64,000 nucleotides of DNA from Polyangia bacterium (lineage in GTDB: Bacteria; Myxococcota_A; Polyangia; JAHFDS01; DATFWX01), in assembly GCA_035258845.1 (NCBI GenBank), contig DATFWX010000218.1, positions 17,354 to 81,353 on the forward strand. Reading direction: 5' to 3'. The notes below the pieces were generated by a model, which was given only the letters and a program-made list of their open reading frames with translations, was not told the DNA's origin and did no database searches. The position numbers were made by a program, and so were the translations under genes. How positions within the stretch are numbered: position 1 is the first letter of the stretch; each line of letters begins with the position of its first letter. Below are positions 13,337-51,884 of the stretch, piece after piece.

Positions 13337-13352
13337 AGCAACGCGCGTGCCG
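13337..13352 (-). promoter_or_regulatory. sigma-54-type -24/-12 element (cGGCACGcgcgTTGCt) upstream of the Gly/Trp peptide gene
   Basis: In gene orientation, ccGGCACGCGCGTTGCTccc lies about 25 nt upstream of the ATG. GG-N10-GC spacing fits the sigma-54 consensus. Confidence 0.45.
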
Positions 13353-14803: not shown

Positions 14804-15087
14804 GCTTCCGCTTCCGCTTCCGGTTTCGGTTTGTCCACGAAATGGCCTGCCCCGCAACCGGTTCCTGCTGCAACACCACGAGTTGCGGTAGGCTCTAGCA
14901 AGCGTGTTCGCGCCACACGAAACCACCAGGGACCCCCAACCTTCCCGTTTCGCGGCCGCGTAGCCAGTCGGCGACATGAAGGCACGCTTCTTGCTGTTCT
15001 GCCCCCCAACATGTCTGGCCCCGCACAGCGGCGCCGCTCATCGACGGTCATGCCGCCGCAAAGTACAGGTGCAATCGGCATTTCCCC

Positions 15088-15756: not shown

Positions 15757-15824
15757 GTCGATGATAGGTCAAAGCTTCCCTGCAGCGACGCTCATCGTGA
15801 TGACGGACGCGGTCGTGGCCGCCA

Positions 15825-16079
15825 TCAGCCAACCATGTGAACGAGCCATCGCTTGAATTGAGGCCAGAGATTCAATCGCCCCACAACGCAAATGTCGCCG
15901 ACACGCAGGTCCTTTCCCTGCTCAAGTCGGTCTATCCCGTCTACGAGAGATTCATTCCACATGACCAGTATCGGAAATTCGTCGTTCTCGCGCAGGTTTC
16001 GAACAACTATCACATGGGTTGCGTCTTTCTCCCTGGCCTCTTGAAGCCAGCGCCGGATATCGGCGGCAGTCGCGAGCAT
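15825..16079 (-). CDS. small hypothetical protein in a lower-GC patch
   Basis: 84-aa ORF (..KDATHVIVVRNLRENDEFPILVMWNESLVDGIDRL..) in a ~300-bp stretch clearly lower in GC than its surroundings. The coding call is tentative. Confidence 0.3.
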   Translation of the reverse strand: MLATAADIRRWLQEAREKDATHVIVVRNLRENDEFPILVMWNESLVDGIDRLEQGKDLRVGDICVVGRLNLWPQFKRWLVHMVG

Positions 16080-16104
16080 TTCGGAACGCTATTTGAAATC
16101 AGCC

Positions 16105-32240: not shown

Positions 32241-32288
32241 CTGGGACGAGTATACTGGGGCCGGCCCCGCGCTGCCCAGAGCCCGCGT

Positions 32289-34310: not shown

Positions 34311-34395
34311 CCGACCCCTAAGACAACCACTGTTTTTCGGCCACGGTCAAGGGGTCCAGTGCCGACGGCGGCCGAGGCAGGCTATCATCGCGCCC

Positions 34396-35661: not shown

Positions 35662-37062
35662 ATGAGTCCAGCGTCGGTTACAATAGGCCTGCCGATGTCC
35701 GCGGAAACTTTAGGCCAGGCCGTGCGCATCGTGGTGGGGGCAGCGAAGCAGCCCGAAACCCACGAGTTCATCTACGATCACCTGCCGATCCGAATCGGAC
35801 GTAACCCGCTCAACGAGCTGCAGCTCGATGACCGACATGTCTCACAATGGCATGCAGTGGTGCTCTACCTCGACGGTGCGATCCGGGTCGCAGATGTAGG
35901 CAGCCGCAACGGCACCTATGTCGACGGCCGTTCACTGACCGTGGGCGAGGCGGTTCCGCTGCTCGGATCGAGCCGCGTCGAGATCCGCCCGTTCACGCTC
36001 GAGGTCGATCCGCTCGATGAGCCCGCGGCCGCCAAGCCGCAGATGCTGCGCGCGCAGGGCCGGCAATGGGTCGATCACACGCGCACCTATGAAGCCGAGC
36101 AGGCGGAGTCCGACTCGGCCTCGACCTCGCTGGTGACGGCATGGAAGGCCGACCTGCTCTCGCAGCTGCGGCCGCTCTACCTGGCCTACGAGGGCGACTG
36201 GGCTTTCCTGTGCGATCGGCTGCGCGAGTACCTCGATCAGGTGGGGCCGCAGATGCGCCTGGCGCTGCTGCGCGAGCTGCAGGCCGAGCTGCCCGCGTAT
36301 CGTTGGGACAGTGCCTTTCCGGAGCTGCGCGCCGACGAGAAAACGCCCGCCCCCTCTTTCGACCCCGAGCATCCCGCGATGCCCGCATTGCGCGATCTGG
36401 CGGAGCATCTGATGGGACGCAAGCACGCGCTGGCAAGCCCCGCGGAGGTGATCGCGTTTTTGGCCCGCGTCCGCGACATCACCGACGTGTTTTTGCATTT
36501 TACGCACAGCCTGCTCAAGGGCTCGCGCCAGATCGAGTCGAGCCTCGCGATGCCGCTGTTCGAGCGCGAGAGCAACCCACTGCATCGCGTGCGGGACGTC
36601 GGCGATCTGGGTGCGCGCCTGTTGGATTTCGAGGCCGATCGAGAGGGTCGCGCGCCGCCCTGGCTCGAAGCCGCTTTCAAAAGTGTGCTCATGCAGCAGA
36701 TCGTGATGCTGAGTGGGATGATGAACGGTGTGCGCACGCTGCTCGACGAGCTGGCGCCCGAGCGGGTGGCCGAGGAGCTGAAGCTGGGCAAAAAGCGCGT
36801 GGGGCCATTCCGCGCCCAAAGACTGTGGCAGGCCTATCAGGCGCGCCACCGCCAGCTCAGCCAGGAGGATAAGGCCACCTTCGAGCGCATCTTTGGTCCC
36901 CATCTCGCGCGCGCGTACGACGAGATCATGGGTGAATGCTACGACTCGCGAGGAGCCGGCAGGCCCGGGACGGCGAGCCAGCCCGGGGGGGCCACGGGCC
37001 CGACCCGCGTCGTGGTGGGGCCGAAGGCGCGTGCCAGCCGCGGCGGCCGCAAGCCGCGCTAG
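35662..37062 (+). CDS. FHA-domain protein (T6SS Fha/TagH-like)
   Basis: N-terminal FHA domain (IRIGRNPLNELQLDDRHVSQWHAVVLYLDGAIRVADVGSRNGTYVDG) plus a ~350-aa C-terminal region. Lies immediately upstream of the PAAR gene and near tssM/tssL and a PpkA-like kinase. Confidence 0.75.
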   Translation: MSPASVTIGLPMSAETLGQAVRIVVGAAKQPETHEFIYDHLPIRIGRNPLNELQLDDRHVSQWHAVVLYLDGAIRVADVGSRNGTYVDGRSLTVGEAVPLLGSSRVEIRPFTLEVDPLDEPAAAKPQMLRAQGRQWVDHTRTYEAEQAESDSASTSLVTAWKADLLSQLRPLYLAYEGDWAFLCDRLREYLDQVGPQMRLALLRELQAELPAYRWDSAFPELRADEKTPAPSFDPEHPAMPALRDLAEHLMGRKHALASPAEVIAFLARVRDITDVFLHFTHSLLKGSRQIESSLAMPLFERESNPLHRVRDVGDLGARLLDFEADREGRAPPWLEAAFKSVLMQQIVMLSGMMNGVRTLLDELAPERVAEELKLGKKRVGPFRAQRLWQAYQARHRQLSQEDKATFERIFGPHLARAYDEIMGECYDSRGAGRPGTASQPGGATGPTRVVVGPKARASRGGRKPR

Positions 37063-37189
37063 TGTCCTTTTCCGAGGACGTAGGCCCCAGTTTGCCGTCA
37101 ACGACCTTTCAACTCGCCACACTAAGCGGCGCAACGGCAGGGGATTCGCCCCTTTGACAGCCTCTGGGGGCCAAGTATCCTTAAGGGTT

Positions 37190-37810
37190 ATGAGCCGGGG
37201 AGGCCGGCCCGCGGCCCACGTCGGGAGCAAGACCAATCACGGGATCACCAGCGCGGACAAGCAGACCGTCCACGTAGGGGGCCGGCCGGTCTCGTACGTC
37301 AACGCCCCGCATAGCTGCAAAATGCACAAGGGGAAAGGCCGCAAGGTCGCCTCGGGCGCCCCCACCGTGCTGGTTTACGGTGTGCCCGTGACCCGGGTCG
37401 ACGAGAAGATGACCTGCAGCTGCAAGGTTGTGGACGGCGTCCAGAACGTGCTGGTCGGCGACGCCAAGCCCGAGCTGGGCCCGCTCGAGCCGGTCGATCT
37501 CTGGATCCGCCTCGATCTGGACCCCCAGGCGGCGTCGGTGTGCTCGGATCGCTACATCCTGACCGCGTCGGACGGCTCGTATCGACGCCAGAAGATTGTG
37601 CTGTCCAACCACATTCCCAACCAAGAGACGGTCGACCTGCATTACCTGGGCTTGCATCGCAGCAAGAGCTACAGCCTGGAGGTGATCGAAGAAGGCGGAG
37701 CCTCCACGTTCGTGTTCCAGAACGTGCCGTACCCACAGCTGGCGGGGCTCAAGGGACCCGCGCGCACGCCCCCGCCCGCAGGCGGCGGCTCGTGCTCCTG
37801 CCATTCCTAG
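37190..37810 (+). CDS. PAAR-domain protein (T6SS spike tip) with C-terminal extension
   Basis: N-terminal PAAR-like repeats (HGITSADKQTVHVGGRPVSYVNAPHSC ... VLVYGVPVTRVDEKMTCSCKVVDG). Start trimmed to ATG 37190. A vgrG is nearby. Confidence 0.65.
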   Translation: MSRGGRPAAHVGSKTNHGITSADKQTVHVGGRPVSYVNAPHSCKMHKGKGRKVASGAPTVLVYGVPVTRVDEKMTCSCKVVDGVQNVLVGDAKPELGPLEPVDLWIRLDLDPQAASVCSDRYILTASDGSYRRQKIVLSNHIPNQETVDLHYLGLHRSKSYSLEVIEEGGASTFVFQNVPYPQLAGLKGPARTPPPAGGGSCSCHS

Positions 37811-37811
37811 C

Positions 37812-38591
37812 ATGGCGGTTGCGCTGACCAGCGATCTGCAGGGGCCCGACCATCCCGGTCCGACCGTCCACGTTCAGAAGAAGATCAAGCTGGTCATGTA
37901 CCCGGGCGAGTCCACCAACGCCAGCGGTACGACGCTCGGGCATATCTACGTGGTGGGCGGCAACGGCGAGTCGTACGAGATTGCGGCCGGGCCGCCGGCC
38001 GGATTCGCCGACCGGGGCGGCCACTCGGCCATCCCGACCCCGGCTGGCAAGTACGTGCTCGGTCCCAAGCACCATCACGTGACGCCGGGCTGGCCGGCTT
38101 CGACGGTGCCGTGGGGCGCCGATCTGCGCACCGACACAAACGGCGAGGTCGAGTTCTCGCCCGATGGCGGCAAGAGCTGGCGCAAGGCGACCGGGATGAA
38201 TGGCGCCACCACGCAGGCGTCGATTCGGTTCCTCGAGAAGGATTGGAAGCGGCCGCTGACCGAGGACGAGAAGCAGCAGGTGAACGCCCAGGCGCGCGGC
38301 TTGTTCTACGACGACACGGGCAAGCTGCAGACCCCTTATCGCGGCAACGACTTTGGCAACTGGGCCTGGAACCTGACCCGAGGCGGGGCGGTCACACCGT
38401 ATTACCTGCACACCACCCCACCCGACGAGGCCGCGAGCGCGGCCGGGCAGCCGGTCAGCCTGGTCAACTCGCACGGCTGCGTGCACATCCGCCCGGCCGA
38501 CCGCGACGAGATGATGCAGAAGGGCTATCTGCGGAAGGGCGTCGAGATCGAGGTCAAGCCGTACGGGCAGAAGGGTCCTCCCAAACCGTGA
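37812..38591 (+). CDS. putative T6SS effector with L,D-transpeptidase (YkuD) fold, Tlde1-like
   Basis: C-terminal ...YYLHTTPP...SLVNSHGCVHIRP matches the YkuD catalytic SHGC(V/I)R motif, with a His about 20 residues upstream. The gene starts 1 nt after the PAAR stop. No signal peptide. Confidence 0.5.
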   Translation: MAVALTSDLQGPDHPGPTVHVQKKIKLVMYPGESTNASGTTLGHIYVVGGNGESYEIAAGPPAGFADRGGHSAIPTPAGKYVLGPKHHHVTPGWPASTVPWGADLRTDTNGEVEFSPDGGKSWRKATGMNGATTQASIRFLEKDWKRPLTEDEKQQVNAQARGLFYDDTGKLQTPYRGNDFGNWAWNLTRGGAVTPYYLHTTPPDEAASAAGQPVSLVNSHGCVHIRPADRDEMMQKGYLRKGVEIEVKPYGQKGPPKP

Positions 38592-39484
38592 CGTCCCTGC
38601 GCGGGGTTCTGCTGCTCGTCATGCTGGGCGGGACTGGCCCGGCGGCGGCCGCCGATTCGACCTGTGGGGCGCGCAGCCGTGAGGTGGCGGCCTCGCTCGG
38701 GCGGGCCCGGCTGGCCATGTCGCCCGAGGCAGCGGTGCGGGCGAGCTTCGAGGGAGCCGTGCGCGCGCTCGCCGAGTGCGTGGGCGACGAGGAGCTGTGG
38801 TACCTGCTGGTGCGGTCGGCCGAGCTCGGCGGCGGCGTGTTCCCGACGCAGGTTGCGAATAGCACGGTCGCCGACCTCAAGGCCGCGGTCGAGCTGGCGG
38901 CGCGTCGGAATCCCAGGTCGGCGCGCATCGCGACCATTCGCGCGCGCGTGATCGGGGGTCTGCAGGCGGCGCGCCAGGCGGTCGCGCTCGATCCGGCCTA
39001 CGCACCCGCCCAAGTGACGCTGGCGGCCGCGCTGTTCGCGGCCCGCGACGCCAAGGCGGCCCGCAGCGTGCTGGCGGCGCGTACCGACCTCGCGCGCGTC
39101 CCGGGCGCGTGCGCGCTGCTGGCGCGGGCCTGTCTGGCCGAGGGCGACGCGAGCGAGGCCATCGCGGTCGCCGAGCGGGAGCCGGCCCCGAGCGCGCTCG
39201 ATCTCTACGAGCCCGGCGCCCGCGACGAGCGGCCCCGGCGCGATGCGGTCGAGGTGGCCGGGCTGGCGTACCTGCACAGCGGACAGTTCGACCCGGCGGC
39301 CCAGCGGCTGCTTCAGGCGGCGGCCGAGGGCTCAGCGGCTGCGCGCACCGCACTGGAGACCGGAAGCCCCGAGCTCCGGCGGGCGCTGGACCGGCTGGCC
39401 CGACGCAAGGGGCTGGCGCCGCGCGAACGGGCCCTGCTGCGCGAGCTCAAAACCCCACCGGCCCGCCGCACTCACCCCCAGTAA
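38588..39484 (+). CDS. putative periplasmic immunity protein (helical/TPR-like)
   Basis: GTG start overlapping the effector stop (GTGA). Signal peptide LLLVMLGGTGPAAAA. Ala/Leu-rich helical repeats. Immunity function is inferred from position only. Confidence 0.4.
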   Translation: MTSLRGVLLLVMLGGTGPAAAADSTCGARSREVAASLGRARLAMSPEAAVRASFEGAVRALAECVGDEELWYLLVRSAELGGGVFPTQVANSTVADLKAAVELAARRNPRSARIATIRARVIGGLQAARQAVALDPAYAPAQVTLAAALFAARDAKAARSVLAARTDLARVPGACALLARACLAEGDASEAIAVAEREPAPSALDLYEPGARDERPRRDAVEVAGLAYLHSGQFDPAAQRLLQAAAEGSAAARTALETGSPELRRALDRLARRKGLAPRERALLRELKTPPARRTHPQ

Positions 39485-39512
39485 CGCCTTTCGATAGTGG
39501 TAAGAAGGCCGT

Positions 39513-40418
39513 TCAGGCGGCGGGCTCGCCGCCGCCCACGACGCCCTGATAGCTCGGGAAGTGATCGAGAAACACCTTCACCGAGGGAGCGCGCGCCATC
39601 GCGACCGCGTATCGGGGCGCCGGGTAGCCCTCGGCGAGCGCATCCGCGACGTCGGACATCCAGCCCAGCGTGGCGCGATAGTCCTCGAGCGGCCGGTGCT
39701 GATGCACGTACTCGTAGGCGACCTCTCCGTCGCGGGTGTCGATCGCGCACAGGATGGTCGCGCGCAGCCCGCCCTCGTGGCCCACCAGCGGATGCGTGGG
39801 CACGGCCAGCGCGGGCGCCGGTCGGATTTTCTCACGCAGCGGCCAGGGCAGAAGGCGCCAGGCTTTGCGCACCGCGTGGCTCAGCTCGCCCACCGCTGCC
39901 GCTGCCAGCACTGCCGCCTGCTGCGCCCCCGGCTGGCCGCGTACCGCTTGCTCGAGGTGCGCCAGAAAGCCCTCGAGCAGCTCGTCGCAGCCCGACAGCA
40001 CCCGGAACGGACGCTCGACGCCGCTCAAGATGAGCTCGAACAGGCCCTCGCATAGAATGGTCCGCACGTCTCCGGTGAAGCCGGGCGACAGCACGAACCG
40101 GCGCTCGTACAGGGTCGCCACCGGAAGGGTCGTGACCTGCAGGACGTAGGGCTCGGCGGCCCCGTCCGGATGCAGCACGAACTCGATCCAGCCTCGGATC
40201 CACTGCTGAGGCGCGTCCAGGTACAACTGATCCCGCACCTCGAGACGCCCGCCAAAGCTCTTGCGCAGGCGGCTCTCGAGCGTGCGGATCTCGTCGCCAC
40301 CGTCCGAGAGCCGGCCCAGGCACAGTCGGCCTACACCGACGTCGAAGAAGTCTCCATCCTTGCGCACGATCACGCCCACCACCTCGCGGTCGAGGATCTC
40401 ACTGAGGCGATCGTGCAT
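39513..40418 (-). CDS. hypothetical protein (T6SS-associated by position)
   Basis: 301 aa from MHDRLSEILD... Last gene of the minus-strand tssL-tssM operon. No recognisable motif. Confidence 0.4.
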   Translation of the reverse strand: MHDRLSEILDREVVGVIVRKDGDFFDVGVGRLCLGRLSDGGDEIRTLESRLRKSFGGRLEVRDQLYLDAPQQWIRGWIEFVLHPDGAAEPYVLQVTTLPVATLYERRFVLSPGFTGDVRTILCEGLFELILSGVERPFRVLSGCDELLEGFLAHLEQAVRGQPGAQQAAVLAAAAVGELSHAVRKAWRLLPWPLREKIRPAPALAVPTHPLVGHEGGLRATILCAIDTRDGEVAYEYVHQHRPLEDYRATLGWMSDVADALAEGYPAPRYAVAMARAPSVKVFLDHFPSYQGVVGGGEPAA

Positions 40419-41922
40419 CGGGCTCGTCGGGGCCTGGGGGGGCGGGCGCCGCCGCGGCGCGCATCCGGGGCGGCTTGGCCTTGCCGGACACCCAGACGCC
40501 GTGCAGCGCCAGCTCGGGCACACCGGTTTCGATGCGCCAGCCGCCCTCGCTTCGGGTCAGGATCACACTGTAGCCACTGCGCTTGCCCAGGGCCATAACG
40601 GTGCTTCCGCCACCGGCCGAAACCACTTCGTCGACCGGCAGCGTCTCCTGGGTCCAGCCGGCTGGACCCAGCACGAGCGCGGCGCCGCTCGACGAGACCA
40701 GCCCTTCTTCCCACTCCCAGCCGCTCCAGCCGCCCAGGATGGCGCCCACCGGGGGCACGCGGCCGTCGCGCGACCAGCGCCCACGCGAAAACAGCATGAC
40801 CTCGGCGCCCGCCTCCGACCCGCCGGCCGCGATCACGGTGCCGCCGACCGCGCTGATGCGATGGACGGTGGCCGCCACCGGCAGCTCCAATCGCTTCCAG
40901 CCGTAGCCGTCGAAGTGCACCACGTAGCCGCCCTCCTCGCCGATGTACACGTCGCCGGGGCGGCTCGAAAAGATGCAGCGCAACGAGCCCCGGCTCGGCA
41001 CCTCGACCCGCCGCCACCCGGCGTGGTCGAGCACCAGCACGGTGCCCTGGTCGCCCACCGCGCACAGCGAATTTTCATCGAGCGGCCAGAGCGCATGAAG
41101 GTCGGCCGTGGTCGGCGCCTGCAGGCGCCGCCAGCGACCGTCGCGCAGCTCGGTCACGGCGCCGCCCGCGCCCACCGCCAGCGCCCGGTCCTGAAAGCCG
41201 CACACCGCGCGCAGCTCGGCGTCGCAATCCGAGCTCATCAGCTTCCACACGCCATCGAAGCGGCCGAGCGCGGTCCCGTAGGCGCCCACCGCGAGTGCGT
41301 CCGCGCGCCGGTCCTCGGCCGCCTGACCCTCCGCCACCAGCAGAAATTCCTCGAGATAGCTCTGGCACCCGGTGAGCCGGCCCAGCAGCGGCTCGGGCGC
41401 CGAGGCCGCCGACGCGGTGGCCAGATCGACGCCCAGCTTGGCAAACAGCGGGCCCGCGTCCGTCCACGGCAGCCCTTCGCGGACCGACTTCCAGGCATCG
41501 CACAGATCGGTCAGCCGCTGCAGAAGCGCGCGCGCCTGGCCGACCTCGAGCCCCCGAAACAGCGCGACCGGAAACAGGGCCACCCGGCCCCGTTCGCTGC
41601 GCTCGAGCGCCCGCACCAGAAGCGCGCACGCGCTGCGCAGCCCATCGGCCTGCGCCGGGATCTTGGCCGCCAGCGCCTGCAGGCGCTCGCTCGCCACCCC
41701 AACCGGGCTGCATGCGAAGAAACACGCCACTCCGCCGGCGTCGGCCACCTCGGTCTCGTCGTAGTCGAAAAGAGCAGTCCAGAGCGGCGGTACATCGCCC
41801 TGGGTCAAGGCCACCGCCGCCTGCGAATGCGTGGCCACGGCCAGCGCCTCCGACTTGGAGGCAACCGCCAGAAGTCGCAGCTCGGGAGCCAGCGGGGGCG
41901 CCTTCTCGGCGGATCGAATCAT
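40399..41922 (-). CDS. hypothetical protein with beta-propeller-like repeats (T6SS-associated by position)
   Basis: 507 aa. C-terminal repeated G-x-x-G-x-V-x-x-DG-x-W-x-R blocks. Start codon 1 nt after the tssM stop. Confidence 0.45.
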   Translation of the reverse strand: MIRSAEKAPPLAPELRLLAVASKSEALAVATHSQAAVALTQGDVPPLWTALFDYDETEVADAGGVACFFACSPVGVASERLQALAAKIPAQADGLRSACALLVRALERSERGRVALFPVALFRGLEVGQARALLQRLTDLCDAWKSVREGLPWTDAGPLFAKLGVDLATASAASAPEPLLGRLTGCQSYLEEFLLVAEGQAAEDRRADALAVGAYGTALGRFDGVWKLMSSDCDAELRAVCGFQDRALAVGAGGAVTELRDGRWRRLQAPTTADLHALWPLDENSLCAVGDQGTVLVLDHAGWRRVEVPSRGSLRCIFSSRPGDVYIGEEGGYVVHFDGYGWKRLELPVAATVHRISAVGGTVIAAGGSEAGAEVMLFSRGRWSRDGRVPPVGAILGGWSGWEWEEGLVSSSGAALVLGPAGWTQETLPVDEVVSAGGGSTVMALGKRSGYSVILTRSEGGWRIETGVPELALHGVWVSGKAKPPRMRAAAAPAPPGPDEPDARSPQ

Positions 41923-41923
41923 G

Positions 41924-44900
41924 TCATCGCACCTGCGCGGGACAGGTCAGCGGGGGCGGACGCTGCAGCGGATTGGCGGTCCGCTCGGGCCGGATGTCGA
42001 GCCGCACCTGGGCTCCGGTCTTGAGCGTCCACGTGAGCTGGTAAATTCCACCGCTCGCCTTGACCATGTGGGCCGCATCAAACAGGTGAAACGGTGCCCA
42101 TTCGCCCTGGAACTGCAAGGCATCGATGACGCCGTTCGCTCCGGCCACGCTCAGGCGCGCGCCGTGCTTCTTGGTCGCCGACGGCCACTCGTAGTGCCAG
42201 CGCTCCTCGGGCGTGTTGCGGAACGTGTTCTTCTTGCCCTCGATCTCGAGGGTCAGCGCGCCCACGTTGCTGCCCACCGGCTGCGGCCGCACCTCGAACG
42301 CGAACTGCGGGGTGGCGGCGCCGGTAGGAAACAGCGCGTTCTGCCACATGGCGGCACTGTGCAGACAGGAAAGGAGCGAGCCCGAGAACATCTTGCCGTA
42401 GCGCGGCTCGGGACGAAAGATGACGCCGTCGCGCGGCAGATAGCGCGCCAGATGTTGGTCGTAATGCTTCCACAAAAGGCCGTTCTCGCGCAGAAACTCG
42501 CTGGAATCGGCGATCGTCGCATCCGGTCCATGATGCGCGAACGGATAGCGCCCGGCGATGCTGTTCGAGTAGGCCGAAAAGACCCCTTGACCCCACGACC
42601 CCGACAGCCGGTCGCTCGAGGTCCTGATGGTGGTCTGGGTCGACAGCGAGACCGGCTGCTCGAATAGCTGCCCGACCATCGAGCGCGTCTGCTCGTCCAT
42701 GGCCTCGTTGAGCAGGCGCTGCGTGAACTCCTGGGCGGCCCGGGTCTCGTCGCTGGCCTTGGTCGATTCGCCGGCGCCCATCTCCTGCTCCGAGCGCATG
42801 GCCGTGCCCAGCCGGGACAGGACGGCCAGATACTGCCCGAGCGGCGCGTCGGCCTTGCCGGGCGGCTGACCGGTCAGGCTGCGGATGCGCGCGAAATCCG
42901 ACTCCAGAGGAGCCACGATCTTGGGCAGGTCGGGCGGACGCATGCCCAGCCCGGCGTCGGGCAGGCCCAGGCGGCCCTCGATGCGGCCCTCCACCTTGGA
43001 GGTCAGCCGCCGCAGCGCAGCGTCCTCGGGCTCCTCGTCGGGCGGAATCGAGGTTTCGTCGATCACGTGCTTGAACAGGCGCACGTAGGGCGGATTGTCC
43101 CCGGTCAGGACCTGGATGTCGCGCAGCATGTCGTGCGGATTTCCGGTCGGGCGCACGGACAGGCCCCGCAGAAAGCTCTTCCAGGCGGCCGCGTAGCTGC
43201 GGAAATAGGCGGCGTAAAGGGCCTCGCGCGCCACGTCATGGCCGCTCGCGCAGTCGGTGGCCAAAACCCACGAGTCCTCGGACATGCGCGAGCGCACCTC
43301 GCGCAGGCGCCGTCTCACGAACTGCTCCCAGCCTCGGCGCGTGTAGCAGCCCGGCACCGAGCCGGCGGAGCGCACCACGGTCTGCACCAGGCCGTCGAGC
43401 GCATCGTTGAGCTCGAACGGCCGCACGCGGCTCTTCGCCTCCGCAATCGCCTCCTCGACCATGGATTCGTCGGCGCGAGCGCGCAGAAGCGAGGAGCGCG
43501 CGCCTGCGACCAGCGCCTCGTCGGGCGCCTGCGGCAGCTTTCCGTGCGCGATGGCGCCGCTCAGCATGCGCAGGTGCGGGCTCAGCTGCATGTCGGACGG
43601 CAGGCTGCGCCGCCGACGCAGAAAATCCTTCCACAAGGGCAAGAGCTGGCGCTCCAGGAACCCGCGATCGATGTGCTTCTTGCATTGCCCGTCGGCCAGC
43701 ATCAGATAGGTCTTGAGCGTGTCGAAATCCTCGCGGTACGACTCGGGTGTGCGGCGACCGCCGCCTCCAATCCAGGACAACCGCTCCTCGAGCATGGCGG
43801 TGACCGGACGGGTCAGGATGGTCGCCAGCTCGGTGAAGTAGAATCGTTCCACCGGCGGTTGGAGAATGCGCCCGCGAAACATCCCAAAGCCCAGCGACAG
43901 CGGCGGCCCGTCGGCGTTCCAACCCTCGATTTCCTCGAGCTGCGCGCGCAGCTTGTCGAGCCGCTCGAAGTCTTCGGCCGTCCGGTCGGCCTCGCCCCAG
44001 GGCACCTTGGCCACCTGACGGCTGTTCTCCTTGACGTCGGCGGAAAGACGCAGGTTGCTGTAGCCGGACACGATGCCGCCCAGCAGGATGAGGCCGCCCA
44101 GCGTGCCCGCGACCGCCGAAGCCACCATCTGCACGCGTGAGCGCGCGCGCCTTTGACCCAGCGACAGCCCGGCCAGATCGCCGTCGGGGAAGATGACCCG
44201 CGTGAACAGATCGTGCAAGAAGTAGCTCTTGCGCTCACGCTGGCCCTTGAACAGGTTTTCGACCGCGCGATCGGGCAGCCCGAACACTCGCCCCACCTCG
44301 CTCATCACGCGGTCGATGGGGCGGCCTTCCTGGGTGCCGCTGGTAAAATAGACGCCGCGCAGGATGGGCACCTGCTGGTACGGGTTGGGCCGGAACAGCT
44401 GTTGCAGGAAGTAGAGCAGATCTTCGCGTTGGCGCGCGAACTGGCGCGGGAACTGGAACACGGCCTCGCGCACCTCCAGCTCCGTCTCCTGCGACACCCG
44501 GTACAGCATGCGCTCGTACAGCTTGTCGCTCAAAAGGTCGAACTCGCGCGCGCACGCTTCCTCGGGATGCGCGGGCGTGTCGAGCGGCAGCGTGAAGCCC
44601 AGGATCTGCCCGGCGTCGCGGCCCATGTCGCCGAAGTACTCGACGAAACCGCGCAGAAGGTCGCTCTTGGTCACGAGCACGTAAGCGGGCAGGGTCAGCT
44701 CCAGCTTCTCCATGATCTCGCTCATGCGAGCGCGCACCTTGGCCGCCATGTCGCCGAGCTCGTTGCGGGGCGCGCCTAGCGACGGCACCGGCACCGCAAC
44801 CATGATGCCGTTGAGCGGCCTTTTGCGCCGATGCTTCTTGAGCATCTGCAGAAAGGCGACCCACTCCTCGGCGTCCTCGTCCTCGATCATGTAGCGGCCC

Positions 44901-45403: not shown

Positions 45404-45404
45404 G

Positions 45405-46304
45405 TCAGCGACCCTGTGCTTCGCCGTACTCCTTGAGCTGCGTTGCCGTGTCGGTGGCGCTCTTGTCCGAGAGCTGGGCCAGGCCAAACAAGAGCACCAG
45501 CACCCCGACCACGGCCAGGGCCACGGTGGCGAAGCCGGGCAGCCGCCGCTTCTGCGCGGGCGCCGTGTCGGGGCGCTCGCCATGGGGCGACAGCGACGGG
45601 CTGGTGCGCCGTCCGCGCTGCGGCAACACCTCGCGCCGAACTTCCTCGAGCAGCACGGCCAGCTCGGGCGTCGAGCCCAGCCGATAGCGGCCCTCGAATC
45701 CCAGGGCCAGGCACAGGTAGTACACCTCCAGCGCCTGGGCGGCGTCGCGTGCCTTCCGGATCTGGTCCAGATGCTGGAAAAACACCTCGCCGGCGATGTT
45801 TTCCGCAAAATACTGGATCTGCAGGGGCTGCTTGACCCAGTCGTCGCGGACCGGGGACTTGGTGTGCAGGATGGTCTCGTCGATCAGAGCGACCAGCCCA
45901 TACCGAGCGTGCTCGACCTCGGTGGGCGAGATCTGGTACTCGACCGCATCGGTGTCGAGCTGATCGAACAGCTCCTTGAGCTTGCGTGCCAGCAGGGAAG
46001 CCGCCGGTACCTCACCGGTCGTGCGGATACGCAGGACCAGCGAGAAAAAGTCCATGCAGAGCTGCGCCAGCCGCGGGGTCGAGCTCTCCTCCTCGTCCGC
46101 CGGCTGGGGCCGATCCATGCCGAGCGCGGACGCCCACCAGCGCGCATTCCGCGGGGGCTCGCTCATGGGCGGCGGACGCCGCGGCTCGTCCTCGGCACGC
46201 CCGCCCGCGCCCGCACCGTCGAACGACGCGGGTCGGGTCGAGCGGGCTCGGCCGCCTTGAGCTCCGGCAGGGCCGCGATCAGAGCGCCGATAGCCCGACA
46301 TCAC
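45405..46304 (-). CDS. tssL: type VI secretion protein TssL (DotU family)
   Basis: Cytoplasmic DotU-like domain (..LVALIDETILH.. YYLCLALGFEGRY) followed by a single C-terminal TM helix (VALAVVGVLVLLFGLA). Immediately upstream of tssM. Confidence 0.7.
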   Translation of the reverse strand: MMSGYRRSDRGPAGAQGGRARSTRPASFDGAGAGGRAEDEPRRPPPMSEPPRNARWWASALGMDRPQPADEEESSTPRLAQLCMDFFSLVLRIRTTGEVPAASLLARKLKELFDQLDTDAVEYQISPTEVEHARYGLVALIDETILHTKSPVRDDWVKQPLQIQYFAENIAGEVFFQHLDQIRKARDAAQALEVYYLCLALGFEGRYRLGSTPELAVLLEEVRREVLPQRGRRTSPSLSPHGERPDTAPAQKRRLPGFATVALAVVGVLVLLFGLAQLSDKSATDTATQLKEYGEAQGR

Positions 46305-47887
46305 TCCCTCGTGGGCTCGAGCGTGACGTCAATCGCGATCTGCTGACCTGGCTGCAAGGTCACCTCCCGCTCCACCGTGCGATAACCAGGGGCTGCCACC
46401 ACCAACCCGTGGGCGCCCGGCTCCTTGGTTTCGATACGCGCCCGCCGGACCGATCGCGCTACCATTTGGTGGTCGAGCCAGATCCGCGCCTCCACATTGA
46501 CCTTTAGTGTAATCACGCTGGGCTCGTGCCCTGGGGTGGGCGGCGTGTTGAGCTGCATCGGCGGCATGGATGGTCGCGCGCTCGACCCATCCCTGCCGTC
46601 CCAACGCTGATACAGCGCCCAGCCGGCCAGGATGACGCCCACACCCACCGTCAACGCGAGCAGGAACAAGAACACCGGCGAGATCCGCTCGTGCTCGGGC
46701 GCGGCCGTCACCTCGCGGCGCGGCTCCGGGGTGAGGCTCAGCTCGGGCTCGAGCTCGGGCTCGAGCTCGGGCTCAGGCTCGAGCTCGGGCTCAGGCTGGA
46801 ACTCGAGCTCGGGCTCGCGCTTGGGACCGGGACTGAGCACCCGCGCACCCGGCGACGAACCGCTCGGCGGCGACGGGCGCATGAGCGCGGGAGCCGGGTT
46901 GCGAACGATGGGGCCGGCCGGCCGCCGCACGGTTCGCGACCGCCGGGGCTCGGGCAGCTGCTGGTCGGGCGGAAGAACTTTGGTCTCGCCCACGCCCGCG
47001 AACGGGTTGAGCGCGCGCCGCGAAGGCGACGAGCCCGGCTCCTCGGGCAGGGAGGCGCTCTGATCGAGCAGCTGATCGCGCACATCCTGCACGGTCGGGC
47101 GCTTTTGCGGATCCTTGTCGAGCATGCGTAGGAGCAGGCGCTCGAGCTGCTGCGGGATGTCGGGCCACAGCTCGCGCGGCTCTGGCTCCACCACCGAGTG
47201 GGCCTTCACGGGACGGCGCCCCAGCAGCATCTCGAACGCCATCACACCGAGCGAGTAGACGTCGGATTCGGGGCTGATCGCGAGCGCGTGCGTCTGCTCC
47301 GGGGACGCGTAGGCAGCCGCGCTGAGCACCACGGTGGGCGCATTGTACGCGCGGTCACCGGACAGCAACTTGGCGATGCCCACATCCGCCACCTTCACCA
47401 GATCGAACCGGGTGGGCAAGAGAATCAGGAAAACATTGCTGGGATGGAGCCCTCCGTGCGCCACGCCCTGGCCATGGCAGAACTCGAGGCCATCGCACAC
47501 CTGCACCAGGATGTCGATCGCATCCAGGTGGCGCAGTCTGCGGTCACGCATCCGCGCGGCCAGCGTCTCCCCCTCGATCCAGTCGCGGATGACGTAGAAG
47601 CAGCCATCGGGCAGAGTCCCGAAGGCCAAAACATCCGCGAGGTTCGGGTGCCGGATGCGGTTCAGGATCCGGACTTCATCGAGAAAGCAGTGCACCGCGC
47701 CAGGGGGCAGACCGGCCGAGATGATGCGGAGTGCCACTTCTTTGCCCACGGAGGGCTGTCGCGCGCGGTAGACAGCGCTAAGCGCGTCCTCCGCGATCTT
47801 GTCATGCACCTGGTAGTCGACCGCAAACTCTCGAGGAACCCCAGGGCTCGGTAGGTCCCCAGCAGCCGGCCGCTCCCTCATCGCCAT
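46301..47887 (-). CDS. PpkA-like Ser/Thr pseudokinase with periplasmic C-terminal domain
   Basis: Kinase fold present but catalytic signatures are degenerate. Gly-loop IAEDALSAVY (no GxGxxG). VALR instead of VAIK. HGGLHPSN instead of HRDLKPxN. DVG instead of DFG. APE retained as SPE. A PEPELE tandem repeat is followed by a TM helix (VFLFLLALTVGVGVILAGWAL) and a ~100-aa C-terminal domain. Confidence 0.7.
   Translation of the reverse strand: MAMRERPAAGDLPSPGVPREFAVDYQVHDKIAEDALSAVYRARQPSVGKEVALRIISAGLPPGAVHCFLDEVRILNRIRHPNLADVLAFGTLPDGCFYVIRDWIEGETLAARMRDRRLRHLDAIDILVQVCDGLEFCHGQGVAHGGLHPSNVFLILLPTRFDLVKVADVGIAKLLSGDRAYNAPTVVLSAAAYASPEQTHALAISPESDVYSLGVMAFEMLLGRRPVKAHSVVEPEPRELWPDIPQQLERLLLRMLDKDPQKRPTVQDVRDQLLDQSASLPEEPGSSPSRRALNPFAGVGETKVLPPDQQLPEPRRSRTVRRPAGPIVRNPAPALMRPSPPSGSSPGARVLSPGPKREPELEFQPEPELEPEPELEPELEPELSLTPEPRREVTAAPEHERISPVFLFLLALTVGVGVILAGWALYQRWDGRDGSSARPSMPPMQLNTPPTPGHEPSVITLKVNVEARIWLDHQMVARSVRRARIETKEPGAHGLVVAAPGYRTVEREVTLQPGQQIAIDVTLEPTRE
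46738..46815. repeat. 12-bp tandem repeat (ctcgggctcgag / ctcaggctcgag, ~6 units) encoding (PELE/PEPE)n linker
   Basis: Read directly at 46741-46815. Lies within the pseudokinase gene, just upstream of its TM segment in protein coordinates. Confidence 0.7.
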
Positions 47888-47979
47888 ATCCAGAAGGAGA
47901 ATCTACTTCGGCCAAGGCTTCGGGTCAATTCGGGAAATAGGCGATCGACAGATGTGGGCCCGACACCTATAATCTCCCC

Positions 47980-48768
47980 ATGGCACAGAATCTGTCGCAG
48001 CCGAGCGGATGGAAAGGCTCGACGGTCACGGACCCCACGCGGCCGCGCGTGTACACGGGCTTTTTCGATGGCAGCAACGAAGCGGAGCGCCAGTTTCTGG
48101 CCGCCCTGCCCAAGGTGACCAAGTTCATCAACGATCGCTTGAAAGCGGGCGGCTATGCCTTCGACGTCCACCAGGCCGAGATCGCAACCAACTTCATCGG
48201 GGAAGGCGGCTACTATCCGCTGCACTGGAACTACTGGCAGCACATCGACGGCTTTGGCGCGCTGGGAATCGACACCTTCGTGCAGCGGCGCCAGGCGCTC
48301 AAGCGTTGGGTCCCCGATTCGGTCATGAAGCTGGCCGACGACCCCCACCACGTCGGCAAGACTCTGAATGAAAAGCGCGAGACGGTGACGTTCCTCACCG
48401 ATCTCGACATGGAGCAGGGCCTGTACGCGAACGCGGGCATGTTCGCGCTGTGCATCGCCACGGCTGCCAACGACATCCCCGGATTTGCGCAGCTCCCGCG
48501 CAAAGTCCGCTTCTTCTGGGCAACCGTCTACTACAATTCGGGCGAGGGCAAGGGACGCTCGCTGCTCAAGCAGCACGGCGTCGACTACTACAAGACTCCG
48601 TGGAAGGGCCCCGAGAACATGATGTCGCCGCTCTTCAACGCGCTCTGGCGCATGCGCACCATGGAGACGCTGCTGCAGGCGCTGTGGCCGGGAACCGATC
48701 GTCCCCCGCCGGCGGCGCCGTCCAGCAACCCCGACCCGGCGTCGAGCGAAAAGGACCCGAATTCGTAG
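47980..48768 (+). CDS. hypothetical protein
   Basis: 262 aa with good GC3 bias. No signal peptide or recognisable motif. Convergent with vgrG. Confidence 0.45.
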   Translation: MAQNLSQPSGWKGSTVTDPTRPRVYTGFFDGSNEAERQFLAALPKVTKFINDRLKAGGYAFDVHQAEIATNFIGEGGYYPLHWNYWQHIDGFGALGIDTFVQRRQALKRWVPDSVMKLADDPHHVGKTLNEKRETVTFLTDLDMEQGLYANAGMFALCIATAANDIPGFAQLPRKVRFFWATVYYNSGEGKGRSLLKQHGVDYYKTPWKGPENMMSPLFNALWRMRTMETLLQALWPGTDRPPPAAPSSNPDPASSEKDPNS

Positions 48769-48778
48769 CTTCGTTCGC

Positions 48779-50524
48779 TCAGCAGTTCAGCTTGACCATA
48801 CCGCCCTTGATGTCGTTGACGTTCTGCGCAACCGCATCGATGTCGGGCGCCGTGATGCTGATCCGGTCGGGCGTGAGAACGACTTTCGAGTTGCCGACCT
48901 GGATCTCGATCCGATCGGTCGCGGTGAGCGAGATGGTCTTGGCGGAGTGCTTGGCGTCGTTGACGACTTCGGTTTCCCAGTCGTGTCCGACCTGCATCCG
49001 GCTGTCTTTCTGCGCGCGGATGTAGACCTCCTCCGAGCCCGCCGCGTCTTCGAACCGCAGCTCGTTGTGCCCGTTGTTGCCCGGCGACGAGCTGGTCATG
49101 ATGGTCGAGATGGTCTTGGACTTGGGCAGATCGTAGGGCACCGGGTGGGAGCCGTTGTAGGTCTGGCCGACGATGACGGGCCGATCGGGATCGCCTTCCA
49201 GAAACTGGACCAGCACCTCCTGACCCACGCGAGGGATGAAGATGGCGCCCCAGCGTGCGCCTGCCCACGCCTGCGCCACCCGGATCCAGCAGGAGCTGTC
49301 GGGGTTGTCTCCGCCGCCGCGGTCCCACCGGAAGCGCACCTTGACGCGGCCGAACGAATCGACGTCGATCTCCTCGCCCGCCTTGCCCACGACTTCGGCC
49401 GAGTGGAGCCCGAGGACGATTGGACGCGGCGTGACGCGTGAAGGCCGGTACAGAACAGCCGCGCCGTCGTTGCCCTTGTCCTTGGTCGGCACCGCCAAGA
49501 AGTCGTTGGAATACCCGAGCGCGCCGCCGGCGTGGTTGACCGACTCGACCAGATACTCCTGGTTCAAGTCTTCGCGCGGGTAGCGCAGGCCCTCGTGAAC
49601 TGCGTCCCCCAGATCGAAGGTCAGGCCCGGCACCAGGCGGTTGCAATTGCTGTGACCGTGACCCGTGAACTTGGTGGCCTGGAGCTCTTCGAGGCGCACC
49701 TTGGCCAGGCGGGACGCCAGATCGGTGTCGACGCACTCGGCCGGATAGTCGTAGATCTGCCCGGCCGCCTCCTGCGCCGCGGCGGTGGCACCCACATCCA
49801 GACGCGGGCTCTTGAAGCTGTAGTCGCGCAGCGTGACCTGGTGCGGCCGCAGATCCTTGCGGAACGTCAGATCCCAGATCGAATCGAGGTCCTGCGACAT
49901 CCCGTGCTCGGGCGTATAGGCGATGGCGGCGTCGGTCTTGCTTTCGGAGATGGAACGGAAACCTGATACGTCGTCGGTGCAGACCATCTTCAGGTGGTCT
50001 TGGCTGTGCTCGAAGTAATAGGTGATGCCCTCTTCCTCGAGCAGGCGTGAGATGAACTCGAGATCCTGCTCGCGATACTGCACGCAGTAATCGCGCGGCG
50101 TGTAATTGGCCTTGAGCTTCCACTCCACCTCGGTCTGGATGCCGCCCTTCTGCAGCACGTCGGTGACGACCTGGCGGGTCGTCTTGTGCTGGTAGATGCG
50201 CAGGTTTCGGTTGAGCGACAGCCTGAGCAGCGGCGGCGTCAGCACGACCCGGTTGACCACATAGTTTTCGAGCGGTGTGCGCTCGTTGGCGATGGTTTGT
50301 ACGCGGAAGATGACACCGTGCACGTTCCGGGTGGCCTGGCGCCCGGGAACGATCAGGCAGCCCTTCTTTCCCAGCATGGATTCGAACGGATAAGACAATG
50401 GGAGCAAGAGGTCGATGTGAAACTGGTAGGGTGTCGAAAGCGCCTCGGTCCCCGAAAAGCTCTGGACACGAATCTGCTCGTCGGACCCTTCGACCGTGAA
50501 ACGAAAAGGGAATTGCAGTTGCAT
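48779..50524 (-). CDS. vgrG: type VI secretion spike protein VgrG (TssI)
   Basis: gp27-like N-terminal and gp5-like OB-fold regions (..VLTPPLLRLSLNRNLRIYQ.., ..GRVKVRFRWDRGG.., ..RVAQAWAGARWGAIFIPRVGQEVLVQFLEGDPDRPVIVG..). No long C-terminal effector extension. Confidence 0.85.
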   Translation of the reverse strand: MQLQFPFRFTVEGSDEQIRVQSFSGTEALSTPYQFHIDLLLPLSYPFESMLGKKGCLIVPGRQATRNVHGVIFRVQTIANERTPLENYVVNRVVLTPPLLRLSLNRNLRIYQHKTTRQVVTDVLQKGGIQTEVEWKLKANYTPRDYCVQYREQDLEFISRLLEEEGITYYFEHSQDHLKMVCTDDVSGFRSISESKTDAAIAYTPEHGMSQDLDSIWDLTFRKDLRPHQVTLRDYSFKSPRLDVGATAAAQEAAGQIYDYPAECVDTDLASRLAKVRLEELQATKFTGHGHSNCNRLVPGLTFDLGDAVHEGLRYPREDLNQEYLVESVNHAGGALGYSNDFLAVPTKDKGNDGAAVLYRPSRVTPRPIVLGLHSAEVVGKAGEEIDVDSFGRVKVRFRWDRGGGDNPDSSCWIRVAQAWAGARWGAIFIPRVGQEVLVQFLEGDPDRPVIVGQTYNGSHPVPYDLPKSKTISTIMTSSSPGNNGHNELRFEDAAGSEEVYIRAQKDSRMQVGHDWETEVVNDAKHSAKTISLTATDRIEIQVGNSKVVLTPDRISITAPDIDAVAQNVNDIKGGMVKLNC

Positions 50525-50739
50525 GACGTCTCCTCCCGGGCTTGTCCGCTGGTCCTACGGGCAGTGTAGCACCCCCCATCGGGCGGGGTGGCAGGGAACA
50601 CTTTTCGGGGTTCCGGGAAACGTGCGCTCGCTCACCGTTGGAGCTTTCAGCCGCCGTGGCTAGCGCGTGCGTTTATATCAAGGTAGCATGTCCGCCGCAC
50701 CAACCGCGACATCACCAAACCATCAACCAGGAGCGCACC

Positions 50740-51150
50740 ATGGGTCTTGCCGAGCGTCGTGCCGCTAAGGAGTACGAGACCAAGCATCTGCCCAGGCTCA
50801 AGCAGGAGATCGTGCAGGCAGCCGGGTTCGAGGTCCCCATCGAGATCAACTGGGAGTCTTTGAGCGCGCCCGACCAGGCTCATCTGTACGAGGAGTGTTG
50901 GACCAAGGTCTACTTCACGCCCCTTATCGGTGCCTTCAAGGCCATCTGTGTCGACGACCTAGGTAAGGATGCGCTCAAGGGCAGCCTGAAGAAAATCGTG
51001 ATCACCAACACCGCCGGGATCTACTACGGCGACCGCATGGCGAGCTTCATGGACGGCGTGCTCACGCTCAATCACGAGCCGACCACCAATGTCGACTCGA
51101 TCGAGGAGAGGCAGAAGGGCATCCAGAAGACCCTCGAAGCCGCCCTGTAG
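50740..51150 (+). CDS. hypothetical protein
   Basis: 137 aa. RBS caGGAGcgcacc upstream of the ATG. Divergent from vgrG. Confidence 0.45.
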   Translation: MGLAERRAAKEYETKHLPRLKQEIVQAAGFEVPIEINWESLSAPDQAHLYEECWTKVYFTPLIGAFKAICVDDLGKDALKGSLKKIVITNTAGIYYGDRMASFMDGVLTLNHEPTTNVDSIEERQKGIQKTLEAAL

Positions 51151-51164
51151 CCTCGCGTTCCCGA

Positions 51165-51884
51165 ATGGACCCGAAGCTGGACGTCCTTCAACGCCTGCCC
51201 CCGCGGCCCCTGAGTCGGCTGCTCGGCGACCTGGCGGCCCTCCGGCAGCGCGCTGCGGCCGGGGAGTCGGTTTCAGTGCCCCTGACTACCCTGCACCTGC
51301 GCACGGGACGCGATGTGGTGGGCTGGGTGGTCGCACTCGACCAGGCCGGATGGTTGCTCGTCCACGGCGCCGGCCCCGACCCGCGCCAACCCGGCTACGA
51401 CGCGGTGTATCTGCCGCTGGCGGCGGTCGAGGCGCTGACCGTGCACGATGCGCCCGCGGCGGCGCCGTTCCTGTCCGAGGGCCGACTGGCCGCGCCCGAG
51501 CAGCCCGCGCCCGGGCTGGGACCACCGCCCTCGCGTCTCGAGCTCAAGCGCAAGCTGGCCGAGCACACGAACGCGCTGCGCGCTGCGGTTGGCTCTTCCC
51601 TATCGGTCGAGGTGGAGTGGTCGGGCGTGGCGGCCGAGGGCGAGGCGTTGCGCACGCTCGACCGGCTGATCGAGGACACCGTCAAGGTCGCCATGGAGTT
51701 GGCGAAAGACGAGATGGGGCGGTCCGCGCTCGGTCGGCTCACCCGGCTGTGCTTTGGCGAGGGGTCGTCGCCCGACGTGCGGCTTGATGGGACGGCAGTG
51801 CTGGTGGTGGCGCGGCTCGCGCTCGGAGTCGCCGGCCGCCTCGGTCGCAGCCAGCTCAAGGAGGCGCTCGAGCGGGTGCTGTAG
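51165..51884 (+). CDS. hypothetical protein
   Basis: 239 aa, Ala/Leu-rich. No motif recognised. 14 bp downstream of the previous gene. Confidence 0.4.
   Translation: MDPKLDVLQRLPPRPLSRLLGDLAALRQRAAAGESVSVPLTTLHLRTGRDVVGWVVALDQAGWLLVHGAGPDPRQPGYDAVYLPLAAVEALTVHDAPAAAPFLSEGRLAAPEQPAPGLGPPPSRLELKRKLAEHTNALRAAVGSSLSVEVEWSGVAAEGEALRTLDRLIEDTVKVAMELAKDEMGRSALGRLTRLCFGEGSSPDVRLDGTAVLVVARLALGVAGRLGRSQLKEALERVL

Follow-up and report, generated by a model that had tools for sequence, protein, structure and literature searches.

An incomplete locus for type VI secretion in an uncultured member of the Polyangia may supply a second TssL/TssM anchor and a dedicated spike tip

In the aux clusters of Vibrio cholerae and the vgrG islands of Pseudomonas aeruginosa, genes for VgrG, PAAR, an effector and an immunity-like protein belonging to type VI secretion systems (T6SS) are located away from the core cluster. 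To our knowledge, such auxiliary vgrG/PAAR islands normally lack membrane-complex genes. Here we characterize a ~15 kb island from an uncultured soil Polyangia bacterium (Myxococcota), found at positions 35662-50524 of a stretch of 64,000 nucleotides (nt) that was analyzed as a whole (the window), which in contrast adds tssL, tssM and tagH to such a cassette. It codes for TagH, a PAAR protein, a YkuD-fold protein with a tetratricopeptide repeat (TPR)-like partner, two proteins designated unk1 and unk2, TssM, TssL, a kinase-like protein and VgrG. In Klebsiella, partial second loci that have no sheath, tube or ClpV genes have been described (PMC12469244, PMC13367176), and T6SSkleb1, which is devoid of tssB, tssC, tssD and tssH, is presumed to depend on another locus (PMC12469244). 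T6SSkleb1 and the ‘incomplete’ K. pneumoniae loci resemble the island in being second loci with their own tssM/tssL and a vgrG-effector region. However, the Klebsiella locus keeps at least eight core genes whereas the island, which lies in Myxococcota, has only tssL, tssM and vgrG in addition to the PAAR gene and tagH, and carries a pseudokinase gene and unk1/unk2. Partial second T6SS loci are thus not unprecedented; what stands out here is mainly the three uncharacterized accessory genes and a possible choice between membrane complexes. We lean towards the view that the island is an accessory, incomplete T6SS locus supplying a second TssL/TssM anchor and a dedicated tip to a core cluster elsewhere in the genome. 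In its make-up it is a mosaic: a spike cassette typical of the lineage, comprising VgrG, PAAR, the effector/immunity pair, unk1-unk2 and the kinase-like protein, is combined with a diverged tssL-tssM pair and tagH.

As the window has ~69% G+C, the GC content at third codon positions (GC3) gives a sharp reading frame. Genes were called by GC3 frame analysis together with Pfam and NCBIfam scans of the translated open reading frames (ORFs); the gene inventory of the initial annotation was confirmed in this way, and the calls agree with the products of the NCBI annotation and of independent gene callers. Two ORF limits were revised: the 663-amino acid (aa) ORF at 48588-50579 was rejected as vgrG in favor of the 581-aa frame, and TssM starts at ATG 45403, which gives a product of 1159 aa. 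All island ORFs are uninterrupted and show GC3 values of 0.81-0.87. The window is contained in a 101,746-nt contig labeled ‘MAG TPA: Polyangia bacterium’, whose entries HJZ87526-HJZ87537 (locus tags VKN99_20280 to VKN99_20325) have the same sequences as the island products; the T6SS genes of the island are already annotated there by NCBI, and accessions and locus tags rise in step. Identical fragments of the island are present in several soil metagenome assemblies. No relatives of the window TssM (searched with TssM peptides) or of unk2 (searched with the family profile) were found in 185,579 genomes representing one per GTDB species, so that a sequenced close relative of the lineage is missing from this set.

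The complete T6SS-i cluster comprises 13 genes (tssA-tssM). A Pfam scan of selected long ORFs of the window, namely those of at least 110-150 aa that fit the GC3 frame, with shorter ORFs and ~12.7-13.6 kb outside the scan, yielded no match for tssA, tssB, tssC, tssE, tssF, tssG, tssJ, tssK, hcp or clpV. Sheath, tube, baseplate, tssA and clpV were accordingly not found in the scanned ORFs, and the earlier remark that sheath and baseplate genes are absent holds; the island alone is unable to build the machine. Matches outside the island were to RND efflux proteins, an amidohydrolase, peptidases, two canonical Ser/Thr kinases, MacB/FtsX, a Kelch protein, a two-component system and a LysR regulator. 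The flanks are as claimed previously, with an aminotransferase gene on the left and a MacB_PCD/FtsX permease gene on the right. In the ~2 kb beyond the right end of the window, no T6SS genes were found either. With regard to the TssJ-TssL-TssM complex, the features of TssM and TssL are present and TssJ was not found: the island gave no SciN match and there is no ORF with a lipobox in 35-52.5 kb. Since no island ORF has a lipoprotein signal, there is no TssJ candidate.

The island falls into three blocks: a plus-strand unit of tagH, PAAR, effector and TPR-like partner genes, a minus-strand operon of five genes in the order pseudokinase, tssL, tssM, unk1 and unk2, and a solitary vgrG. In the operon, the pseudokinase gene and tssL overlap at TGATG, tssM is separated by 1 nt from tssL on one side and from unk1 on the other, and unk1 and unk2 share 20 nt. 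A disruption of tssM or tssL was looked for, but the ORFs are uninterrupted and the domains are kept. TssM is complete, with two N-terminal transmembrane (TM) segments, the Walker A motif GPPSAGKST, one further TM segment and an IcmF_C-bearing periplasmic domain; all four domains are retained, the C-terminal one matching at 1.4e-17. TssL has one C-terminal TM segment and no peptidoglycan-binding extension. If it starts at ATG 46301, it also has a disordered N-terminal extension of ~78 aa containing Thr residues that is absent from its relatives, as the TssL proteins of the canonical clusters L007 and L008 align only from residue 79/84. The start of tssL is disputed: NCBI (HJZ87532.1) gives a 253-aa product beginning at Met46 of the 298-aa product, whereas the longer form is favored by the TGATG overlap with the stop codon of the kinase-like gene, by a GGGAG Shine-Dalgarno sequence and by other gene callers.

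Canonical Polyangia T6SS-i clusters (L007, L008 and the contig of protein P0006) carry homologous TagH, TssL and TssM proteins and the same tssL-tssM order. The island proteins are 35-39% (TagH; 35-37% compared to L007 and L008), 36-37% (TssL) and 35-50% (TssM) identical to their homologues in canonical clusters. However, these clusters have tssJ-tssK upstream and tagF, then tssA-tssB, downstream, as well as a PP2C-FHA phosphatase, whereas the island has the pseudokinase and unk1-unk2 at those positions. The closest TssM in 5.8 billion proteins, P0005, is 49% identical to the window TssM; P0006 and P0007 are 49-50% identical (P0006 50%) and all remaining matches do not exceed 38%. P0005, P0006 and P0007 are mutually 57-62% identical (57% between P0006 and P0005), and being closer to each other than to the window protein they leave the latter as the outlier of a small clade. 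The tssM gene of P0006 is followed by tagF, tssA and tssB in a canonical row, and in Polyangia relatives further removed the genes are arranged as FHA, PP2C-FHA, tssJ, tssK, tssL, tssM and tagF. P0005 corresponds to HJZ87861.1, a full-length TssM on a 69,562-nt contig that is also labeled as a Polyangia metagenome-assembled genome (MAG; ‘MAG TPA Polyangia bacterium’) and sits 330 accession numbers after the island TssM HJZ87531.1; no further TssM matches with HJZ accessions were found at NCBI. From the proximity of the accessions, the same organism label and the plausible contig order (101.7 kb, then 69.6 kb) we infer that HJZ87861.1 and the island probably belong to one assembly. If they do, this bacterium encodes another TssM, the most likely place of which is a canonical cluster. 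The initial annotation had proposed either a split system or a second, partial set of membrane components. HJZ87861.1, at 49% identity, and the canonical surroundings of its relative P0006 favor the second set, although they fall short of proof.

In a single split T6SS, the island would hold the sole tssL/tssM and tagH of the organism, and the other core genes would be found in one or more loci without membrane-complex genes. Such an arrangement would be compatible with the intact and translationally coupled genes, with the scanned parts of the window being free of core genes and with the unproven assignment of the second TssM to the MAG. We nevertheless consider it unlikely because a full-length TssM with the same organism name is only 330 accessions away and because the window TssM, as an outgroup to the canonical clade, looks like a diverged extra copy. 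Several points weigh against a second anchor serving a core cluster elsewhere. The assignment of HJZ87861.1 to the same MAG relies on accessions, label and contig order, bins of this kind can be chimeric, and its 90% cluster has a single member whereas the island proteins recur in several soil assemblies. No core cluster was seen in the sequence of the organism that was examined, and TssM paralogues of only 49% identity would have to share one baseplate and sheath. The roles of the pseudokinase, unk1 and unk2 are derived from context. Furthermore, tssJ and tssK, which are located upstream of tssL in the relatives, are missing here, and the island could equally be a remnant.

In that case, a formerly complete second cluster would have lost tssJ/tssK upstream and tagF/tssA/tssB and others downstream by rearrangement, tssL and tssM would be dead and the core would make use of vgrG, PAAR and effector only. 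The gene order of the relatives, with tssJ-tssK before tssL and tagF-tssA-tssB after tssM, is in line with such a loss: the corresponding positions in the window are taken by the pseudokinase gene and by two genes that are unrelated to them, and a TssJ candidate is missing. Decay appears improbable, however, as there are no frameshifts or stops, GC3 values of 0.85-0.87 equal those of housekeeping neighbors, TssM retains Walker A and its four domains, and the stop/start coupling over five genes argues for continued co-expression. It is also conceivable that the second TssM comes from another organism, by a binning artefact or from the next MAG, and that the genome may be without a core T6SS, the locus being a horizontally acquired orphan. 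P0005 has been seen once, in NCBI, and the G+C content of the island is uneven (63-65% near vgrG versus 72-73% near unk1/unk2), as such an origin would have it. We regard this as very improbable, since the label, the close accessions and the contigs of 101.7 and 69.6 kb fit one length-sorted assembly, and an orphan membrane complex plus spike without a sheath has no known activity. We return to the second, partial membrane-complex set as the preferred explanation; the features of the island are listed in Table 1.

Table 1. Coordinates of the island features and flanking genes in the window
Feature	Position	Strand	Family matches and remarks
Class I/II aminotransferase	34195-35580		Left flank
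tagH, FHA-domain T6SS scaffold, 466 aa	35662-37062	+	FHA 9.2e-12, T6SS_FHA_C 1.2e-15; first gene of plus-strand unit
PAAR spike-tip protein, 206 aa	37190-37810	+	PAAR_motif 3.7e-12; NCBI HJZ87526.1
Candidate effector, YkuD/L,D-transpeptidase fold, 259 aa	37812-38591	+	YkuD 7e-6, 27.1 bits (cut-off 23.4)
Candidate periplasmic immunity protein, 298 aa	38588-39484	+	Start overlaps effector stop by 4 nt
unk2, 301 aa, cytoplasmic	39513-40418	-	Modeled as degenerate RelA/SpoT-synthetase-like (nucleotidyltransferase) fold; last gene of minus-strand operon
unk1, 507 aa, cytoplasmic	40399-41922	-	Helical N-terminal half of ~200 aa, C-terminal beta-propeller (modeled)
tssM, 1159 aa	41924-45403	-	IcmF-related_N 3.7e-79, IcmF-related 5.2e-52, IcmF_helical, IcmF_C; HJZ87531.1
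tssL (DotU), 298 aa from ATG 46301	45405-46301	-	DotU 1.5e-47
Predicted membrane pseudokinase	46301-47887	-	Pkinase 4.5e-32, PEGA 1.5e-6; first gene of minus-strand operon
Divergent intergenic region	47888-47979	both	Two of the three sigma-70-like sites of the whole island
Hypothetical protein, 262 aa	47980-48768	+	Convergent with vgrG; NCBI VKN99_20310
vgrG spike, 581 aa	48779-50524	-	Phage_GPD 7.5e-71, Phage_base_V, Gp5_trimer_C; HJZ87535.1
Hypothetical protein, 136 aa	50740-51150	+	Between vgrG and MacB-type permease; VKN99_20320
Hypothetical protein, 239 aa	51165-51884	+	Between vgrG and MacB-type permease; VKN99_20325
MacB_PCD/FtsX permease	from ~51.9 kb		Right flank

The kinase-like protein begins with a Hanks-type fold, which a linker rich in Pro and Glu and a single TM segment connect to a periplasmic PEGA domain at the C-terminus. 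We aligned its catalytic motifs with those of PknB and, for internal control, with those of two further kinases encoded in the window. The glycine-rich loop GxGxxG is replaced by AEDALSA and the VAIK motif by VALR (Lys to Arg), the catalytic loop reads HGGLHPSN instead of HRDLKPxN (HRD Asp to Gly, Lys to His), and the DFG motif is DVG; the two neighboring window kinases are canonical in the same alignment. As three catalytic residues and the glycine loop are lost, we call the protein a predicted membrane pseudokinase. The earlier assignment as a PpkA-like kinase that provides a threonine-phosphorylation input fails on the loss of the glycine loop, the VAIK Lys, the HRD Asp and the catalytic-loop Lys.

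TagH is recognized by Pfam at both of its domains, while its NCBIfam score of 3e-23 is under the cut-off. Reading of the translation showed that its phospho-threonine-binding residues GR, SxxH and NG are retained. With these residues kept and the kinase dead, any phospho-signal must come from another kinase. Two large canonical Ser/Thr kinases are encoded left of the island (29142-34310), with just the aminotransferase gene in between; one is fused to TPR repeats and the other to a periplasmic phosphonate-binding domain. These are candidate sources of phospho-threonine for TagH. In P. aeruginosa, PpkA carries a VWA domain; the periplasmic domain of the island protein is PEGA instead, and there is no VWA domain. 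The PpkA/PppA/Fha1 pathway of the P. aeruginosa H1-T6SS and the pathway of Agrobacterium tumefaciens, in which PpkA, phosphorylation of TssL at Thr14 and Fha act together (PMC3953482), share with the island a kinase-fold membrane protein by tssL-tssM and an FHA protein in the locus, and the island has both intact phospho-threonine-binding residues in TagH and Thr in the tail of TssL. By analogy with Thr14 of Agrobacterium TssL (PMC3953482), this N-terminal tail is a possible target of phosphorylation. On the other hand, the kinase fold of the island lacks the catalytic residues, and neither the island nor the other window ORFs that were scanned yielded a PP2C phosphatase (PppA).

[quoted passage not shown] The membrane pseudokinase YukC is reported to be central to T7SSb (bioRxiv 10.1101/2020.05.09.085852). 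YukC/EssB and the island protein are both single-pass proteins with a cytoplasmic degenerate kinase fold encoded in a secretion-system locus. However, they belong to different secretion systems and phyla and show no detectable orthology, and the comparison is an analogy only.

The two unknown proteins had been proposed to be TssJ/TagF-like or novel accessory factors co-operonic with tssM. The co-operonic arrangement is confirmed, as a single nucleotide separates the tssM stop from unk1, which in turn has 20 nt in common with unk2, and of the two proposals the novel accessory factors stand. The remote-homology check came out against the other identities: hhalign probabilities for unk1 and unk2 were at most 0.3% against the TagF proteins of L007 and L008, unk2 reached 0.1% against the Polyangia TssJ profile and has no lipoprotein signal, unk1 has neither a SciN match nor a lipobox, and neither protein matched ImpA_N, the Pfam model used for TssA.

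Neither unk1 nor unk2 yielded a match in Pfam or NCBIfam or a significant one among PDB sequences. In the AlphaFold2 model of unk1 the propeller is confident at residues ~205-480 and the N-terminal half is of low confidence; Foldseek returned generic WD40, Ycf48 and tectonin propellers. A word search with unk1 found one real homologue, and the others were reached through their loci. The model of unk2 is confident (pLDDT 87.7), and its best structural neighbors by two methods are small synthetases and toxSAS of the RelP, FaRel, CapRel and Tas1 type, with weak scores below significance. A profile search of 1.84 billion representatives with unk2 gave 36 clusters. The remote matches form a family, A6, with the motifs DDLARGR, YRGRxHV, YELQxG and HDxVYKG; a single member comes close to the RelA_SpoT threshold of Pfam, and unk2 aligns to the family with an hhalign probability of 98.5%. 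A PDB sequence search with A6 gave nothing significant. These structural matches (RelP/RelQ, FaRel, CapRel and Tas1, a T6SS effector) and the profile chain to the A6 motifs may connect unk2 to the RelA/SpoT homologue (RSH) small synthetases, from which it differs by an extra C-terminal domain. Measured against the RSH consensus motifs, the unk2 family has Leu or Val at the position of the ExQ glutamate (consensus YLLQIT) and no H..YK, compared to YELQIG and HDxVYKG in A6. Based on the model, unk2 is best described as a degenerate RSH-like fold, and owing to these two losses it is probably not a synthetase. In A6 members of 522-848 aa the RSH-like motifs are located at the C-terminus after long N-terminal regions, while P0170 (216 aa) is the A6 domain alone; the family (P0169, P0170, P0171, P0174) looks like polymorphic toxSAS-type toxins.

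Pairs of unk1 and unk2 occur in six further lineages (L002, L018, L012, L014, L013, L022), and unk2 occurs without unk1 in two more (L020, L007). In L012, L020 and L022 vgrG is directly downstream of unk2, and one protein, P0167, consists of the C-terminal part of unk2 followed by a VgrG domain, which hints at a like arrangement. The pairs of L002 and L018 each face a VgrG-PAAR-toxin-SUKH-3 cassette; L013 and L014 are short contigs without vgrG in view. Outside the window, no tssL or tssM was found near unk1-unk2 in the sequence available, which covers 10 kb to either side for L002 and L018, the extent of the contig for L012 and less than 10 kb for the others. The only other unk2 locus with tssL/tssM nearby is the canonical L007, which has no unk1 and in which unk2 is the first gene of an operon that also contains a tssF paralogue and lies within the cluster. 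The conserved partners of unk1-unk2 elsewhere are VgrG/PAAR cassettes and not tssM. A kinase-fold gene lies upstream of the pair in L002, L018, L014 and L012, and the HRD Asp is lost in L002 and L012, too; these kinases are 25-28% identical to that of the window, so the link is recurrent but not orthologous. In L020 and L012 unk2 is preceded by an HExxH effector; a role as the immunity protein of this effector was rejected because it is missing from most unk2 loci.

The spike cassette of the window includes a 127-nt gap between tagH and the PAAR gene, with a promoter-like site at 37154-37181 that precedes the latter. The PAAR protein bears a C-terminal extension of ~110 aa, and the 206-aa product is also called in other assemblies; its residues 100-184 match the C-terminal extension carried by a VgrG in L012 (2.6e-14), a homology that fits an adaptor role. 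The next gene starts 1 nt past the PAAR stop and encodes the YkuD-fold protein (HJZ87527.1, ‘L,D-transpeptidase family protein’), whose translation contains an SHGC motif, a His 20 residues upstream of it and no signal peptide. With its weak Pfam match it is a candidate cell-wall-targeting effector. For the following gene the 298-aa call is shared by Logan and NCBI (VKN99_20280); a minus-strand ORF at 38525-39277 was rejected since the plus-strand gene is called by other assemblies and NCBI. Its product has weak TPR matches (3e-4 to 5e-4) under the cut-off, a signal-like N-terminus by eye and no detectable similarity to any known immunity family. The Tlde1/Tldi1 pair of Salmonella (PMC9638812) corresponds in the YkuD fold, the SHGC motif, the missing signal peptide, the preceding spike gene and the following gene for a secreted protein, but differs in that the island effector is a weak Pfam match and its partner is unlike known immunity families. 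The vgrG gene is solitary between two plus-strand genes and its product, 36-43% identical to the VgrGs of related islands, has no C-terminal effector extension. A Tvp/DUF2169-DUF4150 spike-assembly accessory (PMC13373197) was considered and rejected, as no island protein matched DUF2169 or DUF4150.

In the explanation we propose, a core cluster elsewhere in the genome, most likely with HJZ87861.1 as its own TssM, would provide the TssEFGK baseplate, the TssBC sheath, the Hcp tube, TssA and ClpV, and probably TssJ as well. The island would contribute a diverged second TssL/TssM anchor and a VgrG-PAAR tip loaded with a cell-wall-targeting effector. TagH would bind phospho-threonine made by another, active kinase, possibly on the N-terminal tail of TssL as in Agrobacterium, and the membrane pseudokinase would be a scaffold and not an enzyme. 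Cytoplasmic unk1-unk2 may help to prepare or dock the VgrG spike, as the pair travels with vgrG genes everywhere else. More speculatively, and with little confidence, pseudokinase, unk1 and unk2 could form an undescribed Polyangia accessory module that readies or gates a specific VgrG, maybe in response to a nucleotide or envelope signal; wired to a private TssL/TssM, it would let one sheath/baseplate set fire through two differently regulated membrane complexes. If the second anchor is true, the modularity of the T6SS reaches beyond spikes and effectors to interchangeable membrane complexes. T6SS biology has been little explored in this phylum of predatory, social soil bacteria, and here the organism is uncultured and the unk family tiny. 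The degenerate kinase, propeller and RSH-like pseudoenzyme recurring by vgrG are a lead for new spike-loading or regulatory factors, and would parallel, within the T6SS, the pseudokinase that plays a structural part in type VIIb secretion.

The divergent intergenic region between the pseudokinase and the 262-aa gene contains TCGACA-17-TATAAT on the plus strand (11/12) and TTGACC-17-TAGATT on the minus strand (9/12). Three sigma-70-like sites were found in the island compared to 1.1 expected, all of them consensus matches only. The 262-aa protein has no Pfam, NCBIfam or PDB-sequence match and no homologue in related loci, and it is uncertain whether it is part of the system; the 136-aa and 239-aa proteins, which are encoded divergently from vgrG and have no family match and no counterpart in related loci, are probably outside it. 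The lower G+C content of 63-65% extends across 47000-51000 with vgrG and the 262-aa and 136-aa genes, and the higher values cover the unk1, unk2 and immunity genes; this contrast hints at an assembly from pieces of different origin.

Further observations concern the related loci and the left part of the window. In the Polyangia VgrG islands of L012 (6879-8162) and L020 (6333-7610, 14377-15546 and 16138-17271), polymorphic effectors share an N-terminus of ~230 aa starting with MADIRS and have variable C-termini, including HExxH metallopeptidase-like and Scabin-like ADP-ribosyltransferase domains. In L022 (1507-4347) a 946-aa ‘evolved’ VgrG with a C-terminal calpain-like Peptidase_C2 domain is encoded directly downstream of unk1-unk2. 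The canonical cluster of L007 contains two tssF paralogues (1-1464 and 17587-19296), one of them preceded by the unk2 homologue, and no tssG match in the 23 kb read. Finally, ~12 kb of the window (5000-17000) have a G+C content of 62-66% compared to ~70%. This block contains a tRNA-Gly(CCC) gene (8071-8145), a zf-HC2 anti-sigma-like gene (9073-10089), a caspase-like Peptidase_C14 gene (10086-11663) and several ORFs without matches, and may be an integrated element beside the tRNA gene.

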